Assembly (NCBI RefSeq): GCF_050320075.1
Contig: NZ_CP190018.1
Length of the DNA stretch: 64,000 nucleotides
Origin: Escherichia coli
GTDB lineage: Bacteria > Pseudomonadota > Gammaproteobacteria > Enterobacterales > Enterobacteriaceae
Reading direction: 5' to 3' (one strand)
Below, piece by piece: positions 1 to 6,543 of this stretch. A program made the translations under genes and the position numbers. Every line of letters starts with the position of its first letter. Position 1 is the stretch's first letter. The notes below the pieces were generated by a model that worked only from the letters and a program-made list of their open reading frames with translations, made no database searches and was not told the DNA's origin.

Positions 1-2280
1 ATGGCCGTTAAAGCCTCCGGGCGTTTTGTCCCTCCGTCAGCATTTGCCGCAGGCACCGGTAAGGCGTTTACCGGTGCTTATGCATGGAACGCGCCACGCG
101 AGGCTGTCGGGCGCGAAAGACCCCTTACACGTGACGAGATGCGTCAGGTGCAAGGTGTTTTATCCACGATTAACCGCCTGCCTTACTTTTTGCGCTCGCT
201 GTTTACTTCACGCTATGACTACATCCGGCGCAATAAAAGCCCGGTGCACGGGTTTTATTTCCTCACATCCACTTTTCAGCGTCGTTTATGGCCGCGCATT
301 GAGCGCGTGAATCAGCGCCATGAAATGAACACCGACGCGTCGTTGCTGTTTCTGGCAGAGCGTGACCATTATGCGCGTCTGCCGGGGATGAATGACAAGG
401 AACTGAAAAAGTTTGCCGCCCGTATCTCATCGCAGCTTTTCATGATGTATGAGGAACTCTGCGATGCATGGGTTGATGCACATGGCGAGAAAGAATCGCT
501 GTTTACGGATGAGGCTCAGGCGCATCTGTATGGTCATGTTGCTGGCGCTGCACGAGCTTTCAATATTTCCCCTCTCTACTGGAAAAAATACCGTAAAGGA
601 CAGATGACCACGAGGCAGGCATATTCTGCCATTGCCCGTCTGTTTAACGATGAGTGGTGGACTCATCAGCTTAAAGGTCAGCGTATGCGCTGGCATGAGG
701 CGTTACTGATTGCTGTCGGGGAGGTGAATAAAGACCGTTCTCCTTATGCCAGTAAACATGCCATTCGTGATGTGCGTGCGCGCCGCCAGGCAAATCTGGA
801 ATTTCTTAAATCGTGTGACCTTGAAAACAGGGAAACCGGCGAGCGCATCGACCTTATCAGTAAGGTGATGGGAAGTATTTCTAATCCTGAAATTCGCCGG
901 ATGGAGCTGATGAACACCATTGCCGGTATTGAGCGTTACGCCGCCGCAGAGGGTGATGTGGGGATGTTTATCACGCTGACCGCGCCGTCAAAGTATCACC
1001 CGACACGTCAGGTCGGAAAAGGCGAAAGTAAAACCGTCCAGCTAAATCACGGCTGGAACGATGAGGCATTTAATCCAAAGGATGCGCAGCGTTATCTCTG
1101 CCGCATCTGGAGCCTGATGCGCACGGCATTCAAGGATAATGATTTACAGGTCTACGGTTTGCGTGTCGTCGAGCCACACCACGACGGAACGCCGCACTGG
1201 CATATGATGCTTTTTTGTAATCCACGTCAGCGTAACCAGATTATCGAAACCATGCGTCGCTACGCGCTCAAAGAGGATGGCGACGAAAGAGGAGCCGAGC
1301 GAAACCGTTTTCAGGCGAAACACCTTAACCGGGGCGGTGCTGCGGGGTATATCGCGAAATACATTTCAAAAAATATCGACGGCTATGCACTGGATGGTCA
1401 GCTCGATAACGATACCGGCAGACCTCTGAAAGATACTGCCGCGGCTGTTACTGCATGGGCGTCAACGTGGCGCATCCCGCAATTTAAAACGGTTGGTCTG
1501 CCGACAATGGGGGCTTACCGTGAACTACGCAAATTGCCTCGCGGCGTCAGCATTGCTGATGAGTTTGACGAACGCGTCGAGGCTGCACGCGCTGCCGCAG
1601 ACAGTGGCGATTTTGCGTTGTATATCAGTGCGCAGGGTGGGGCAAATGTTCCGCGCGATTGCCAGACTGTCAGAGTCGCCCGTAGCCCGTCGGATGAAGT
1701 TAACGAGTACGAGGAAGAAGTCGAGAGAGTGGTCGGCATTTACGCGCCGCATCTCGGCGCGCGTCATATTCATATCACCAGAACGACAGACTGGCGCATT
1801 GTTCCGAAAGTTCCGGTCGTGGAGCCTTTAACTTTAAAAAGCGGCATCGCCGCGCCTCGGAGTCCTGTCAATAACTGTGGAAAGCTCACCGGTGGTGATA
1901 CTTCGTTACCGGCTCCCACACCTTCTGAGCACGCCGCAGCAGTGCTTAATCTGGTTGATGACGGTGTTATTGAATGGAATGACCAGGAGGTCGTGAGGGC
2001 GCTCAGGGGCGCATTAAAACGAGGTCTGAGAAGACCAAACCGTCAGCAAAGAAACGGAAGCCCGTTAAAACAGCATGAAATGGCACCATCGGCCAGACTG
2101 ACCCGGTCAGAACGAATGCAAATTACCCGTATCCGCGTTGACCTTGCTCAGAACGGTATCAGGCCGCAGCGATGGGAGCTTGAGGCGCTGGCGCGTGGAG
2201 CAATTGTAAATTACGACGGGAAAAAATTCACGTATCCAGTCGCTGATGAGTGGCGGGGATTCTCAGCAGTAATGGAGTGA
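1..2280 (+). CDS. A: Phage replication initiation protein (P2 gpA-like, rolling-circle nickase)
   Basis: 759-aa ORF at the position and size of P2 A (761 aa), immediately before the cargo island and cos; starts at window edge so the N-terminus could extend upstream. Confidence 0.8.
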   Translation: MAVKASGRFVPPSAFAAGTGKAFTGAYAWNAPREAVGRERPLTRDEMRQVQGVLSTINRLPYFLRSLFTSRYDYIRRNKSPVHGFYFLTSTFQRRLWPRIERVNQRHEMNTDASLLFLAERDHYARLPGMNDKELKKFAARISSQLFMMYEELCDAWVDAHGEKESLFTDEAQAHLYGHVAGAARAFNISPLYWKKYRKGQMTTRQAYSAIARLFNDEWWTHQLKGQRMRWHEALLIAVGEVNKDRSPYASKHAIRDVRARRQANLEFLKSCDLENRETGERIDLISKVMGSISNPEIRRMELMNTIAGIERYAAAEGDVGMFITLTAPSKYHPTRQVGKGESKTVQLNHGWNDEAFNPKDAQRYLCRIWSLMRTAFKDNDLQVYGLRVVEPHHDGTPHWHMMLFCNPRQRNQIIETMRRYALKEDGDERGAERNRFQAKHLNRGGAAGYIAKYISKNIDGYALDGQLDNDTGRPLKDTAAAVTAWASTWRIPQFKTVGLPTMGAYRELRKLPRGVSIADEFDERVEAARAAADSGDFALYISAQGGANVPRDCQTVRVARSPSDEVNEYEEEVERVVGIYAPHLGARHIHITRTTDWRIVPKVPVVEPLTLKSGIAAPRSPVNNCGKLTGGDTSLPAPTPSEHAAAVLNLVDDGVIEWNDQEVVRALRGALKRGLRRPNRQQRNGSPLKQHEMAPSARLTRSERMQITRIRVDLAQNGIRPQRWELEALARGAIVNYDGKKFTYPVADEWRGFSAVME

Positions 2281-2545
2281 ACGTCGCCAGTTGCGAAAAT
2301 TATTTACAGGGGGCAGCGTTAAGCATCTAAAGATCTTGTTCTATGATTAGAATGTTTCCTCGTTGCACTCTCGTATAGTTATTTAATGGGAAGATGTACT
2401 CTATATGTTGTGTTTTGGTGATAAATGAAGCCAAAGGAAGGAGATTTTGCTTGATTGATGGGCGCTCTTTGCTATACACCTTGTATTGAGAAGGAGAAGT
2501 AATCAAGGATTAAGCTGGCTTTTGTCAAAAATCTGAAAAGCTTTT

Positions 2546-2575
2546 TTGACTGAATACGATAGCGAGTTGTACTAT
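2546..2575 (+). promoter_or_regulatory. Putative sigma70 promoter (TTGACT-N18-TACTAT) for the first cargo operon, overlapped by an inverted repeat GTCAAAAA...TTTTTGAC
   Basis: -35 TTGACT at 2546-2551 and -10 TACTAT at 2570-2575 read directly; inverted repeat arms at 2524-2531 and 2543-2550. Confidence 0.3.
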
Positions 2576-2609
2576 TTGCGCCCTCAAAAGTAACCGGCGG
2601 CTGGGTAAA

Positions 2610-2984
2610 ATGGGGAAGCAAGGCAAAGGCAAAGGCAACAAAAATCAGGTTAAGGTTACGTGGGCTCAGGCGTGGCGGGATGTAATGATAAGAGCCATGT
2701 CTAATGGTCAGTTGATACCTATTACCATCAGTATTATTTTAATGATTGCTGCATGGAGGTTACCAAAAACAGACTTGTCCAATTTAGCCTTCTCTATTGT
2801 TGATGGCTTTAAGGAGCATTCCTTGGTTGGTTGGGCTATCTCGGTAATAGTGGGTTTGGCTTGGTCTGCACATGCGCGAATCATGAGGCGCTGTTTTAGT
2901 TCCGAGGCACAGAGAATCGGTAACGAGAAAACAAAGTATCAACAAAGACAGACCACTCAAGCCTTGGGTACAAGTGATAAATAG
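2610..2984 (+). CDS. Small membrane protein, 124 aa, two predicted TM helices, basic Lys/Gly-rich N-terminus (cargo)
   Basis: ORF track; hydrophobic stretches LIPITISIILMIAAW and LVGWAISVIVGLAWSA; AT-rich relative to phage backbone; start codon choice uncertain. Confidence 0.55.
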   Translation: MGKQGKGKGNKNQVKVTWAQAWRDVMIRAMSNGQLIPITISIILMIAAWRLPKTDLSNLAFSIVDGFKEHSLVGWAISVIVGLAWSAHARIMRRCFSSEAQRIGNEKTKYQQRQTTQALGTSDK

Positions 2985-3004
2985 TTGTTTATTTAGGAGT
3001 TATT

Positions 3005-3562
3005 ATGCTGACAGTGCTGTTTTATGTGCTGTTGGGTTTAGGCGCAGCACACTTCATTTACGAGCGAATCATTTTGCCGTCCATCCGACTTCATTATAGA
3101 AACCAATTGTTTGCGCTTCGTGATGTCGCTAGGAGGAAAATCATTGATGGAGGTTCCGATACTTCCATGCAAGCGGCAACACTTGTGCATGACTCATTGA
3201 ATAACGCTATCAATAGATTGCATTTACTCACGTTGCCAAACAAATTTCGTGCTCAAAAGCGTATGGCAGAAAACCATGCAATAAGGCAGAAAATTCGGCG
3301 TGAGATAGATGTTTTCAAACGCTGTGATGATAGAGAAGTTGTTGATGTACTGTTTAAATCCGGTCGGATACTTGAAAATGTACTGTTATTCAATAGCTTA
3401 ATGTTATTGCTTTACATGTTTCCATTTGTCCTTGCTGTATGGTTCTGTGTTAGGGTCATAAAGACAGCAAGTAGTTTAGTACAGTGGGTCAAAGGAAGAG
3501 ATTTAGAGGAAGCTATAATGCTGCTTCCTGATACTCAGGTTGAAAAGGTTGTATACGCATAA
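3005..3562 (+). CDS. Membrane protein, 185 aa, hydrophobic N-terminal and C-terminal segments (cargo)
   Basis: ORF track; AGGAG-like RBS 7 nt upstream of ATG; 20 bp after the preceding ORF, so co-operonic; hydrophobic segments MLTVLFYVLLGLGAAHFIY and LMLLLYMFPFVLAVWFCV. Confidence 0.65.
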   Translation: MLTVLFYVLLGLGAAHFIYERIILPSIRLHYRNQLFALRDVARRKIIDGGSDTSMQAATLVHDSLNNAINRLHLLTLPNKFRAQKRMAENHAIRQKIRREIDVFKRCDDREVVDVLFKSGRILENVLLFNSLMLLLYMFPFVLAVWFCVRVIKTASSLVQWVKGRDLEEAIMLLPDTQVEKVVYA

Positions 3563-3590
3563 AAATCACCCCTTAGGGGGTGATTTTTTT
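3563..3590 (+). terminator. Rho-independent terminator after the two-gene membrane operon
   Basis: aatcacccc-TTAG-ggggtgatt stem-loop followed by T7 run immediately after the stop codon. Confidence 0.6.
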
Positions 3591-3801
3591 ACATGACTTT
3601 TGATTAGCTGACATTGTAAATCCGCATGTATCAGATGCATTGTTTTGCATGTGGAAATGGGTGTTTTCACTGCCAGCTATCGCTACATGTAGCAAAAACA
3701 CGGGCTTAATAAGAAATCATTCTGCCATAAGGCATAACTTCCCCGCGTGCTCAGGTATTGACGTCATAGATATGGATCTTTTTTAATCAAGGTATGGTAT
3801 T

Positions 3802-4749
3802 ATGAAGATATTTATTAGTTGGTCAGGTCAGGACAGCCTGGAGATAGCAAAAGTATTACGGGATTGGATACCGAATGTTATTCAAGTAGCTGAGCCGTAC
3901 GTATCAGCGGAAGATATTGATAAAGGCACTCGCTGGGCGACTGATATATCAAAGGAACTTGATGACTCTTCTTATGGGATTATTTGCCTTACAAAAAATA
4001 ATATTAATGCACCGTGGATAAATTTTGAGGCGGGTGCTTTAGGTAAAAAGGTTGATAAGAGCCGGGTTAGTCCTTTCTTGTTTAAAATTAAACCATCTGA
4101 GATAACAGGCCCAATATTACAATTCCAGTATACTCGTTCGGATGATAAGAACGATATTTTGAAGTTGATGTTGTCAATAAATAATCAAGCAGGATTTTTG
4201 ACTGAAGAACGCTTAACTAAAGCTTTCGAGCAATGGTGGCCAAGTTTAGAGCGTGAGTTAGATAACATTCAAGATATTAACCCTGTAGATAAAGATTCCA
4301 CTAAAAAAACAAAAGGTGATTCGACTTCTGAGATACAAAATCTTTCCAAAATTGTTGAAAGTTTGCTGGATATTAGCCGAACAAATCACCAATTATTGCG
4401 TGATCCAGCATCATTATTGCCAGAAGAATATGTTAGCAAAATAATAAACAGGGAAGGGCGTAAAGAAACTGTTTTAAAAATTGTAGCTTCTGATTTATTA
4501 TCCATGCATCATTCACTAATTCGTGTAAAAAGAAGATTTATTCGCCGTGGTATTGATGAAACATCTAGGAGCGAGTTAATTGAATCATTAAATAAAATGA
4601 TAATGGATTGTTCTAGAGTAATCGCTCACTTAGATAATTATTGTGGGGCTTCATCAAACAATATGTTCAATAGTGCGCTTAGATTGCGGACCAGAAATTT
4701 AATTGACATGATGGATGAGGAGGATGCAGAACGGGATGAAATGGAATAA
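3802..4749 (+). CDS. TIR-like domain protein, 315 aa: N-terminal TIR-like fold (~130 aa) plus helical C-terminal domain of unknown function (cargo, candidate defence protein)
   Basis: N-terminus MKIFISWSGQDS...GIICLT...APWINFEAGAL matches the bacterial TIR/TIR-like signature (FISYS-type strand 1, conserved W..E.G motif) by eye; no HMM search run. Confidence 0.65.
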   Translation: MKIFISWSGQDSLEIAKVLRDWIPNVIQVAEPYVSAEDIDKGTRWATDISKELDDSSYGIICLTKNNINAPWINFEAGALGKKVDKSRVSPFLFKIKPSEITGPILQFQYTRSDDKNDILKLMLSINNQAGFLTEERLTKAFEQWWPSLERELDNIQDINPVDKDSTKKTKGDSTSEIQNLSKIVESLLDISRTNHQLLRDPASLLPEEYVSKIINREGRKETVLKIVASDLLSMHHSLIRVKRRFIRRGIDETSRSELIESLNKMIMDCSRVIAHLDNYCGASSNNMFNSALRLRTRNLIDMMDEEDAERDEME

Positions 4750-4797
4750 TCAATTTTGACTAATCATAAATAATTTTGCATATATAAACTTATAATG

Positions 4798-4830
4798 CCG
4801 CAGCCGCTATTTTTCAGCGGCTGTATATCG
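4798..4830 (+). terminator. Putative terminator downstream of the TIR-like gene
   Basis: cagccgct-atttttc-agcggctg stem-loop followed by a short T-containing tract; weaker than the other terminators. Confidence 0.35.
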
Positions 4831-5293
4831 CTTATAATGGGTATGTTATTTTTATTTTGATAAAATCATTAAAATTGTCGATGTTATATGAATGCACATG
4901 TATTATTAATGTTAGAAGATTATGCCTGCTTACGGCTATTGTGCTGAATTCAACTATGAACGCATCAGTATTAAAATCGTTCCATGAAATGTTCTTCGTC
5001 TACAGCAGATGATGGGCAACGAAAAAATGACGCTGAGTGAGTTGGTCGGGGAGAATTGTTAGAGGTATTTATGGAGTGGTTTAATAATATCGGTCAATCC
5101 TGAGTTGCAGCATCACATAGACGATAGGGAATCTCTCCAGTCGTTCTGGAATGGCAGCGTTGAACAACAAGCACAGCGAGGCGTTAGATGCCCATCAGAT
5201 TGACACAGAGGGTTTATGAATCGCTGGGATTTACTTAGTTTGAAAAATAATATATTTATATGTTTTTGTATTGTGTTTGTTAAGGAGTTTGGA

Positions 5294-5500
5294 TTGAAAA
5301 GAAAACTGATTTGTGTTATGGCTTTTTGGGGGGCGTTGCTGGCTGGTTGTAATGAGAGTAATAAAAAAGAAGTTGAGGGTTGTATTGAAAGAGGTGTCCA
5401 ATATTTTATAGAGATTGGTTCTTACCCTAAATTAAGTGATGGGCGTGATGCTGTGAAAGTTGCTACTGAACGTTGTAATAGAACAATAACGGCTTTCTGA
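5294..5500 (+). CDS. Small putative lipoprotein (about 68 aa precursor), signal peptide with lipobox LAGC (cargo)
   Basis: In-frame TTG at 5294 with TAAGGAG RBS 7 nt upstream gives MKRKLICVMAFWGALLAGC; the track starts at 5216 and an ATG lies at 5318; stop overlaps next start (TGATAATG). Confidence 0.45.
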   Translation: MKRKLICVMAFWGALLAGCNESNKKEVEGCIERGVQYFIEIGSYPKLSDGRDAVKVATERCNRTITAF

Positions 5501-5502
5501 TA

Positions 5503-6420
5503 ATGGATTATACGAGCTATATAATAGGACAGCTTCAGGTTGAGGATATTATTGATGCAATTAAAGGCGTTAATAATACTAATGTCATAAAAGATTATGT
5601 GCTGCCTGTAGTATTACCAATTATATCTTCTGTGCTGAGTTACTTTATTGCAACTAGGTTGTTTTATCGGCAGGAGTACCTTAAAGCACAAAGAAGAAAG
5701 GTAAGCGTTGTAAATAAATGTATTTATGACTACTTTTCTGCAATGACAACGTTGTTGCAAATTAAAGGGAATTATTATGGTGGGGTAAGTATAAGTGAAA
5801 ATCCTATCGAGAGGGCTTTAGCTTTTCCTGTTGTGGTTTTTTCTGGTGCTCCTCTATCATCAGATTTAAGTGAGTTGGCCTGTATATTGAGTCAAAAGGG
5901 AGTAGGGAATAATAGAGAGCCAGCAAAGACTACTAACTGGGGGGATGCTTTTGCTGTTAGTGATATAGCAAGAAGGTTTAACAGCCTATTGGCTGCATTA
6001 AATGTTAGGAATGATTTTGATGACACCTATAGAGGAATGATTATTGAATCAACAGGTTCACCTTTGCCTACGATGCGTTTTAAAAATGATGATATTGTTA
6101 ATGCTATAGGTAGTAATAAGGCAGCTTATTACATTGATATTACTGAGCAAATAATGATTATGATAGATGTTTTGTTGCTTGATATTAATCTGTTGCTCAA
6201 AGAGTTGCCATTGTATGCTGAATCGCTGTTTGACAAAAGAGTAATGCAAGAAGATTCAGGGATTCTTAAATTCAATGATTTGCACGAACGTTTTCCTCTA
6301 CTTATGAAACCTGTAACGCCACCTTCGATTAAACTCATGTCTGATTATTTGGGGTACAGTGAAGATGAGATCTTACGACGCTATCCATACCCGTTCTTTA
6401 ATATGCATGATTGTGAATGA
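5503..6420 (+). CDS. Hypothetical protein, 305 aa, single N-proximal TM helix, no domain recognised (cargo)
   Basis: ORF track; translationally coupled to the upstream lipoprotein ORF; hydrophobic segment VLPVVLPIISSVLSYFIATRLFY; strongly AT-rich. Confidence 0.65.
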   Translation: MDYTSYIIGQLQVEDIIDAIKGVNNTNVIKDYVLPVVLPIISSVLSYFIATRLFYRQEYLKAQRRKVSVVNKCIYDYFSAMTTLLQIKGNYYGGVSISENPIERALAFPVVVFSGAPLSSDLSELACILSQKGVGNNREPAKTTNWGDAFAVSDIARRFNSLLAALNVRNDFDDTYRGMIIESTGSPLPTMRFKNDDIVNAIGSNKAAYYIDITEQIMIMIDVLLLDINLLLKELPLYAESLFDKRVMQEDSGILKFNDLHERFPLLMKPVTPPSIKLMSDYLGYSEDEILRRYPYPFFNMHDCE

Positions 6421-6524: not shown

Positions 6525-6543
6525 GGCGAGGCGGGGAAAGCAC
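6525..6543. other. cos: Phage cos site (19-nt P2-type cohesive end GGCGAGGCGGGGAAAGCAC)
   Basis: Exact 19-mer read in sequence, preceded by a GC hairpin, located between the cargo island and portal gene as in P2. Confidence 0.7.

Follow-up and report, generated by a model that had tools for sequence, protein, structure and literature searches.

The closest described system is phage AC1, which was isolated by Rousset et al. 2022 and used there to validate the 2TM + 1TM + TIR defence system, with three genes given for the AC1 locus (PMC9122126). In the same study, cos ends were proposed as a driver of cargo exchange (PMC9122126). The TO region treated there is the same locus in the same phage as the one described here, with the cargo adjoining cos, while the spacer, the two downstream genes, the left boundary element and the cos-flank remnant presented below are not discussed (PMC9122126). 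The DNA analysed here, referred to as the window, is a whole stretch of 64,000 nucleotides from Escherichia coli contig NZ_CP190018.1 (assembly GCF_050320075.1), and all coordinates refer to it unless another record is named. For lambdoid phages, modular theory includes conserved boundary or 'linker' sequences where modules join, which were reportedly described in 2001 by Clark and colleagues for HK620, and single-strand initiation (ssi) or primosome assembly signals are known from ssDNA phages and conjugative plasmids. Finally, work by Nilsson from 2004 is said to be about the fun locus and not the AC1 cargo locus.

The cargo island of the AC1 prophage

The window begins at gene A of a P2-like E. 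coli prophage (gpA, replication endonuclease, 1-2280), and the portal and terminase are encoded on the opposite strand from 6714 onward. Between gpA and these genes lies a low-GC island, which corresponds to the 'TO' cargo hotspot of P2. Over its whole length, the island is 100% identical to phage P2_AC1, and the prophage represents the AC1 phage described by Rousset et al. 2022. Among 5426 complete E. coli genomes, 13 carry the spacer, all at ≥99% identity and with the same five-gene arrangement. A contig binned as a Collinsella MAG (JAIJJM010000013.1) is also 100% identical to the AC1 prophage over 11.6 kb, and its Collinsella assignment is probably a binning error. Two sites of the phage backbone frame the island:

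1854-1875, plus strand: gpA origin-like motif GCCTCGGAGTCCTGTCAATAAC inside gene A (motif match)
6525-6543, plus strand: genuine cos cohesive-end sequence GGCGAGGCGGGGAAAGCAC, the right boundary of the cargo region (sequence match)

The 19-mer GGCGAGGCGGGGAAAGCAC is presumably the P2 cohesive-end sequence, and the region of GCCTCGGAGTCCTGTCAATAAC is what we take to be the P2 A-protein cleavage region of Liu and Haggard-Ljungquist. The ori in the phage 186 record is likewise annotated inside gene A, by similarity to P2.

Three genes of the island (2610-2984, 3005-3562 and 3802-4749) match the 2TM-1TM-TIR PADLOC models at 1e-58 to 1e-118. Beyond the spacer, a lipoprotein (68 aa) and a 305-aa protein are encoded at 5294-6420, for which only PHROGs of unknown function were matched and no Pfam or PADLOC model. 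Being located in a defence hotspot and outside the tested clone pFD240, these two genes form a candidate cargo pair. As judged from its first bases and the reverse primer, the published defence clone pFD240 corresponds to 2347-5135 of the window, thus carrying 386 bp of the spacer and ending just short of the boundary-element remnant described below. Since the clone spans 4750-5135, the published defence experiments are compatible with a role of this part as well as with none.

Size, composition and coding content of the spacer

The initial annotation placed about 540 bp of non-coding DNA between the TIR gene and the lipoprotein gene, and the distance from the TIR stop at 4749 to the TTG at 5294 is indeed 544 bp. 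In RefSeq, the lipoprotein gene starts at ATG 5216, leaving a gap of 466 bp. However, the TTG at 5294 appears to be the better supported start, and the RefSeq start is probably misannotated. An AAGGAG at 5282-5287 lies 6 nt before the TTG, a relative (L113) has an ATG exactly at this position, and the PHROG profile aligns with the lipoprotein from residue 1 when translation begins here. In addition, substitutions between the window and L113 amount to 13% upstream of 5294 and 2% downstream. With this start, the gap is 544 bp and the gene is as follows:

5294-5500, plus strand: lipoprotein gene with a TTG start and the signal peptide MKRKLICVMAFWGALLAG followed by C (ribosome-binding site, L113, PHROG profile)

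The practical correction thus concerns the lipoprotein start, as well as the validated 2TM-1TM-TIR clone, whose 386 bp of spacer are apparently debris.

The gap was further described as AT-rich, which holds in relation to the phage backbone (53-55% GC) but not to the island itself, as the spacer has 35.8% GC and the cargo genes 36-39%. The composition also differs along the spacer, with 29.8% GC at 4750-4991, 44.9% at 4992-5158, 51.7% in a 29-mer at 5159-5187 and 31.1% at 5188-5293. The claim that only peptides of 10-16 codons occur is too narrow, since mechanical open reading frames of 51, 32, 29 and 26 codons are present. No family supports any spacer ORF, including the one of 51 codons, and elsewhere the spacer is homologous to non-coding DNA or to a gene whose frame is broken here. 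Finally, half a kilobase of non-coding DNA had been called unusual for a compact cargo island. The gap is the largest of the island, but not an outlier in kind, because two more gaps of 329 and 239 bp are found there.

A boundary element in P2-like phages

Part of the spacer derives from an element that we define here as element E, consisting of a hairpin and the invariant 29-mer GTTGAACAACGAGNNNAGCGAGGCGTTAG immediately 3' of it. The hairpin has 16 pairs, forming a 13-pair lower and a 3-pair upper helix, with AAC/GTT at its base. The 29-mer was found in 98 IMG/VR contigs and 96 phage records, always with the hairpin directly before it. All named phages examined that carry it are P2-like, including 186, PSP3, Wphi, SopEPhi and phages of Yersinia, Klebsiella and Erwinia, and E is invariant across phages of Escherichia, Salmonella, Klebsiella, Yersinia and Erwinia. 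Among 49 distinct sequences, the stem is 91% paired, compared to 33-50% with slid partners, and 168 doubly changed cells were counted versus 15-49 in the slid controls, with compensatory change in 13 of the 16 pairs. The stem further contains 44 G.U/G.T pairs and 11 A.C pairs, and this excess of G.T over A.C identifies one strand as the folding strand. Searching Rfam with the window copy and two intact copies returned sub-threshold noise only, and no paper containing the 29-mer was found in a full-text literature search.

Element E stands 3' of at least five unrelated gene families. Pairwise comparison of 82 loci gave 130 pairs that share the upstream gene and the hairpin but not the downstream sequence, and 26 pairs in which the downstream sequence is common to both loci while the upstream gene and the hairpin are not shared. 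This pattern places the swap point between backbone and cargo at the 29-mer itself. The 29-mer lies 256 to 3152 bp away from cos. For example, phage 186 has an unannotated E (L117, 3456-3536) between orf97 and the terminator t95b, approximately 210 bp from the right end. In PSP3 (L118), two copies at 2552-2631 and 2956-3036 bracket gp37, which for this reason looks like a cassette itself. In many loci, the start codon of the following gene comes 7-9 nt after the GAGG of E, and at the RNA level E could act in phages as a 3' stem-loop combined with a fixed translation-initiation leader.

Directly after E, many P2-like phages encode a protein of ~86 aa (MGKKDSNHQIIYRG...) with homologs in P22-like phages and SSU5. 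The genes of these homologs are preceded by perfect LexA boxes (L114, 1460-1500; L115, 1468-1500), thus the product is probably a small SOS-induced protein. As a separate observation, the 29-mer of the window (5171-5184) and the cos end (6525-6543) have the 8-mer GCGAGGCG in common, and a variant in a Klebsiella phage (L116) shares GGCGAGGCG with it. This likeness may be due to chance.

Several known types of element were considered for E. As in lambdoid linkers, a short sequence is identical between diverged genomes exactly at the mosaic swap points, but E differs from them by its invariant 29-mer and covarying hairpin, its strand specificity and its presence on F-like plasmids. Like attC sites, E is an imperfect hairpin conserved in structure rather than in sequence, with AAC/GTT triplets at its base and a 3' side, GTTGAAC, that fits the attC GTTRRRY, and both stand at the 3' end of successive cassettes. 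However, only the AAC/GTT pair is shared, and the 7-bp pairing of R'' and R' is lacking, the invariant 29-mer is not an attC feature, and the junctions of the TIR cassette in the window are illegitimate, unlike the fixed crossover point of attC. E was rejected as an attC site, as R'' (RYYYAAC) and R' (GTTRRRY) are not complementary beyond the triplets (the bases 5' of AAC against GAAC) and no integron integrase is encoded in the island. The hairpin was also rejected as an intrinsic terminator, since it lacks a U-tract and, in phage 186, E precedes the annotated terminator t95b. Likewise, E has no CTGT..ACAG and hence no LexA box, and a mimic of the gpA nick site was dismissed because only the 7-mer CGCCTCG is shared, in reverse orientation.

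Four parts make up the spacer

From left to right, the region contains gpA, a truncated E, the TIR cassette, a remnant of the left cos flank, a broken small gene, a second E, the lipoprotein cassette and cos. The copies of E and the parts of the spacer are:

2276-2325, plus strand: E#1, a weakened hairpin and the first 8 nt of the 29-mer, at the left junction of the 2TM-1TM-TIR cassette (alignment)
4750-4991, plus strand: segment A, a 3' flank travelling with the TIR gene (colinear with the interval from TIR stop to cos in L108)
4800-4824, plus strand: stable hairpin GCAGCCGCU-AUUUUUC-AGCGGCUGU after the TIR gene (folding)
4957-4991, plus strand: decayed cos flank TGAACGCATCAGTATTAAAATCGTTCCATGAAATG, derived from the sequence immediately left of the cut at P2 cos (alignment, shuffle tests)
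4990-5127, plus strand: pseudogene, the 3' two-thirds of a 68-aa gene (PSP3 gp37 / phrog_11386; nucleotide homology, indels, frames)
5128-5158, plus strand: decayed hairpin of E#2, with an 11-nt deletion and a broken outer stem (alignment, folding)
5159-5187, plus strand: 29-mer of E#2, GTTGAACAACAAGCACAGCGAGGCGTTAG, with one mismatch to the invariant form (motif match, covariance model)
5188-5238, plus strand: 16-codon ORF directly after the 29-mer, with the GAGG of the 29-mer as putative Shine-Dalgarno (position)
5188-5293, plus strand: leader of the lipoprotein cassette, containing the AAGGAG (88% identical in L113/L105)

Segment A aligns end to end with the corresponding interval of the P2-like contig L108, in which a TIR homolog (74% amino acid identity) is the last gene before cos. 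The local score was 47, compared to 11.6 ± 1.7 for dinucleotide shuffles (z 20.7, 0/500). The TIR homolog of L108 (4590-6410) stands alone, without 2TM and 1TM partner genes. The hairpin at 4800-4824 has a 9-bp GC-rich stem (-17.8 kcal/mol, z -3.2) and is conserved in position in L108 with a different stem sequence (z -4.1). Neither hairpin is followed by a U-tract, the window stem running into UAUAUCGCUUAUAAUGG, and a scan of the spacer for intrinsic terminators gave 0 sites. The hairpin at 4800-4824 is therefore terminator-like, but without a U-tract.

At the end of segment A, the 35 nt of 4957-4991 are ~70-74% identical to the conserved left flank of cos (...TGCAACTGCATTAAAACCGCCCCATGAAGCG), which is present in every P2-like genome examined and also adjoins the cos of the window itself (6525-6543). 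With three genuine cos flanks as reference, shuffle tests gave z values of 4.6-9.0 (0-2 of 500). The linear record of phage 186 ends 4 nt past the equivalent position, so the remnant stops a few bases short of the mature right end. From 4992 onward, the 19-nt GGCGAGGCGGGGAAAGCAC is missing and pseudogene sequence is found directly in its place, and the remnant is hence not a functional cos.

The pseudogene shares 69-73% nucleotide identity over ~200-220 bp with 344 further E. coli genomes (E down to 1e-27). In these genomes, the intact 68-aa gene is located 3' of gpA and a DUF3850 gene and matches phrog_11386 at 4.9e-39, with PSP3 gp37 as a homolog. The window copy lacks the 5' third and carries indels of 5 (deletion), 1 (insertion) and 3 nt. 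Homology runs in a first frame (..VLRLQQMMGNEKMTLSELVGENC, then a stop) and continues in another frame with stops (..WFNNIGQS, stop, VAASHRR, stop). A decayed remnant of a replaced cargo gene was among the options of the initial annotation, which proposed aligning the stretch against other P2-like prophages. Such alignment did reveal a gene remnant, together with the decayed cos flank, but the gene is a small conserved member of the P2 family normally sitting just before the cargo site, and not cargo.

In relatives, a long hairpin and then the invariant 29-mer come after the small gene. Both copies of E in the window are damaged. E#1 begins at the gpA stop codon, and its homology to intact copies ends at GTTAAGCA. 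Compared with the intact element of L005, it gave a local score of 24 (null 7.1 ± 1.2, z 13.9, 0/1000) while its folding is weak (-11.8 kcal/mol, z 0.29). E#2 contains the only match to the 29-mer in the window, with 0 matches in 100 shuffles, and is recognized by the covariance model at 34.9 bits (E 8.5e-9), the lowest score of all copies, the others reaching 47-92 bits. Its hairpin folds with a z of -0.99 versus -4.4 for an intact copy. Thus, the spacer copy has the 29-mer of element E but not the 16-pair hairpin. Following it, the 16-codon ORF may be what is left of the ~86-aa gene found after E at other loci, a weak indication being the CAYCAGATT motif that both share. The leader is 88% identical and abuts the 29-mer in an independent contig, and so belongs to the lipoprotein cassette.

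Origin of the spacer

We consider it likely that the spacer is a non-coding seam between two cargo cassettes that AC1 acquired independently. One partner would have been a phage genome carrying the TIR gene, contributing either its right end as cut at cos or the end of a deletion that reached this cut. By illegitimate joining, this end would have entered the small gene of another P2-like genome. From that second genome would come E, the lipoprotein pair, the working cos and the last ~1.5 kb, and the unselected parts of the joint would have decayed since. The fusion of the cos end into the small gene of the second phage is the step we infer from this arrangement. It is supported by the retention of the 29-mer while the hairpin was lost, and by the left junction of the TIR cassette, which is likewise non-canonical. 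The cos remnant is short (35 nt) and ~70% identical, which places the junction only to within a few bases, and with ~30% divergence from all comparators, decay is not separable from an origin in a diverged parent.

Among viral contigs and representative genomes, the parental arrangements gpA-E-2TM-1TM-TIR-cos and intact orf68-E-lipoprotein-305aa-cos were not found. This search returned only loci identical to AC1 and one independent lipoprotein contig, which breaks off exactly at E. Cassettes arranged in tandem with E between them are present in tidier form in six loci from IMG/VR or E. coli (L003, L011, L015, L016, L054 and L086) and in PSP3. The arrangement of the scar fits the suggestion of cos-end recombination by Rousset et al. 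2022. Taken by itself, the spacer is unremarkable, being junk DNA where mosaic segments meet, and its history is clear. The cos-flank remnant fused to a broken backbone gene represents a physical trace of cargo stacking in a P2-like phage, and the scar would show how such a phage came to hold two cargo cassettes. To our knowledge, it is the first sequence-level trace of the cos-end idea.

Present-day role of the spacer

Considering its parts, the hairpin at 4800-4824 likely ends or stabilises the TIR transcript, and the last ~15 bp of the spacer likely serve as the ribosome-binding site for the TTG-initiated lipoprotein. Transcription of the lipoprotein/305-aa pair is likely to occur by read-through or from a weak AT-rich promoter, while the rest of the spacer is likely inert. 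The initial annotation suggested a promoter or operator for the downstream module, and it could be argued that the spacer is mainly such a region for the lipoprotein/305-aa genes. The 106-bp leader at 5188-5293 (31% GC) travels with this module and has a perfect TTGACA at 5200-5205, which is conserved in L113 and is found again downstream of E in other lineages. However, no acceptable -10 is found 15-19 bp beyond this hexamer, and the leader holds no well-scoring pair. Promoter-like hexamers are also present at 4811-4838 and 4838-4866, but the best promoter candidates, 430-480 bp away from the start codon, fall within the TIR flank and lack conservation in L108. A consensus scan gave 6 sites, where 5.9 are expected by chance. 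At most, ~100 of the 544 bp could be explained by a promoter, and we regard this role as the main reason for the spacer as unlikely.

That the spacer encodes a small RNA with a regulatory or structural role, such as a TIR-system cofactor, is highly improbable. The inclusion of 4750-5135 in the validated clone pFD240 and the stable, conserved hairpin at 4800-4824 are in its favour, but comparison of the spacer with Rfam yielded nothing at E ≤ 10 beyond noise, the whole spacer folds no better than shuffles (z -0.18), and 4990-5127 is a broken protein gene. Moreover, the relative L108 keeps only the hairpin, with ~60-75% identity elsewhere. With the hairpin of E#2 degraded as well, the small regulatory RNA raised in the initial annotation finds no support. 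A retron-type or defence-associated ncRNA was dismissed too, given no Rfam match, no reverse transcriptase and ordinary folding.

It is also conceivable, though doubtful, that the E copy at 5128-5187 still functions and that the spacer exists because E must precede the last cassette. Its 29-mer has been kept with one substitution amid decayed surroundings, E is the universal left boundary of cargo, and its orientation is strand-specific in phages as well as plasmids. Yet the hairpin, which is strongly selected elsewhere, has lost 11 nt and its outer stem in this copy, and no other copy scores as low in the model. Furthermore, AC1 is viable and has been propagated as a phage although E#1 is truncated too. 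Overall, a decayed seam between two cassettes remains the preferred reading of the spacer.

Element E on conjugative plasmids

Element E was also found on plasmids. Complete E. coli genomes contain 1961 plasmid sites with E, and at least 5000 plasmid records, mainly of F-like plasmids and including F itself, carry the element. Among the plasmids listed, 84% are conjugative, and many plasmids carry two to three copies. Typically, E lies between traT and traD. Examples of plasmid copies are those in L120 (2455-2536), L122 (6253-6334 and 20582-20666) and NC_002483.1 (89583-89667). A homology of 186 Orf97 to TraT, which would explain the position of E beside traT, was rejected (E = 1.3).

In all eight plasmid copies inspected, E is antisense to the tra genes, and this strand is, as we assume from textbook knowledge and consistent with the data here, the transferred strand (T-strand). 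Similarly, E and the gpA ori motif share one strand in 40/40 P2-like loci, with E located 761-3312 nt 3' of the motif. From the P2 literature, and in analogy to phiX174, we take the strand of the motif to be the one displaced in rolling-circle replication. This pattern, an argument from position and strand, suggests a role in single-stranded DNA, such as priming or recombination. E thus resembles ssi signals in position and strand, with a hairpin and a conserved flank on the strand that becomes single-stranded, and the bias of G.T over A.C pairs (44 to 11) is also consistent with such a signal. However, an invariant CTG for DnaG is lacking, and E does not resemble single-strand promoters of the Frpo type. 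It could be speculated, with considerable reservation, that E is an undescribed strand-specific ssDNA signal, for instance a site of complementary-strand priming or of recombination, which is common to rolling-circle P2-like phages and F-like conjugative plasmids and also sets the exact crossover point for the exchange and stacking of defence and other cargo cassettes. If E did have such an ssDNA function, it would link phage and plasmid biology and explain the location of hotspots. On some plasmids, unnamed extra genes are found on either side of E, which may therefore mark a variable spot there too.
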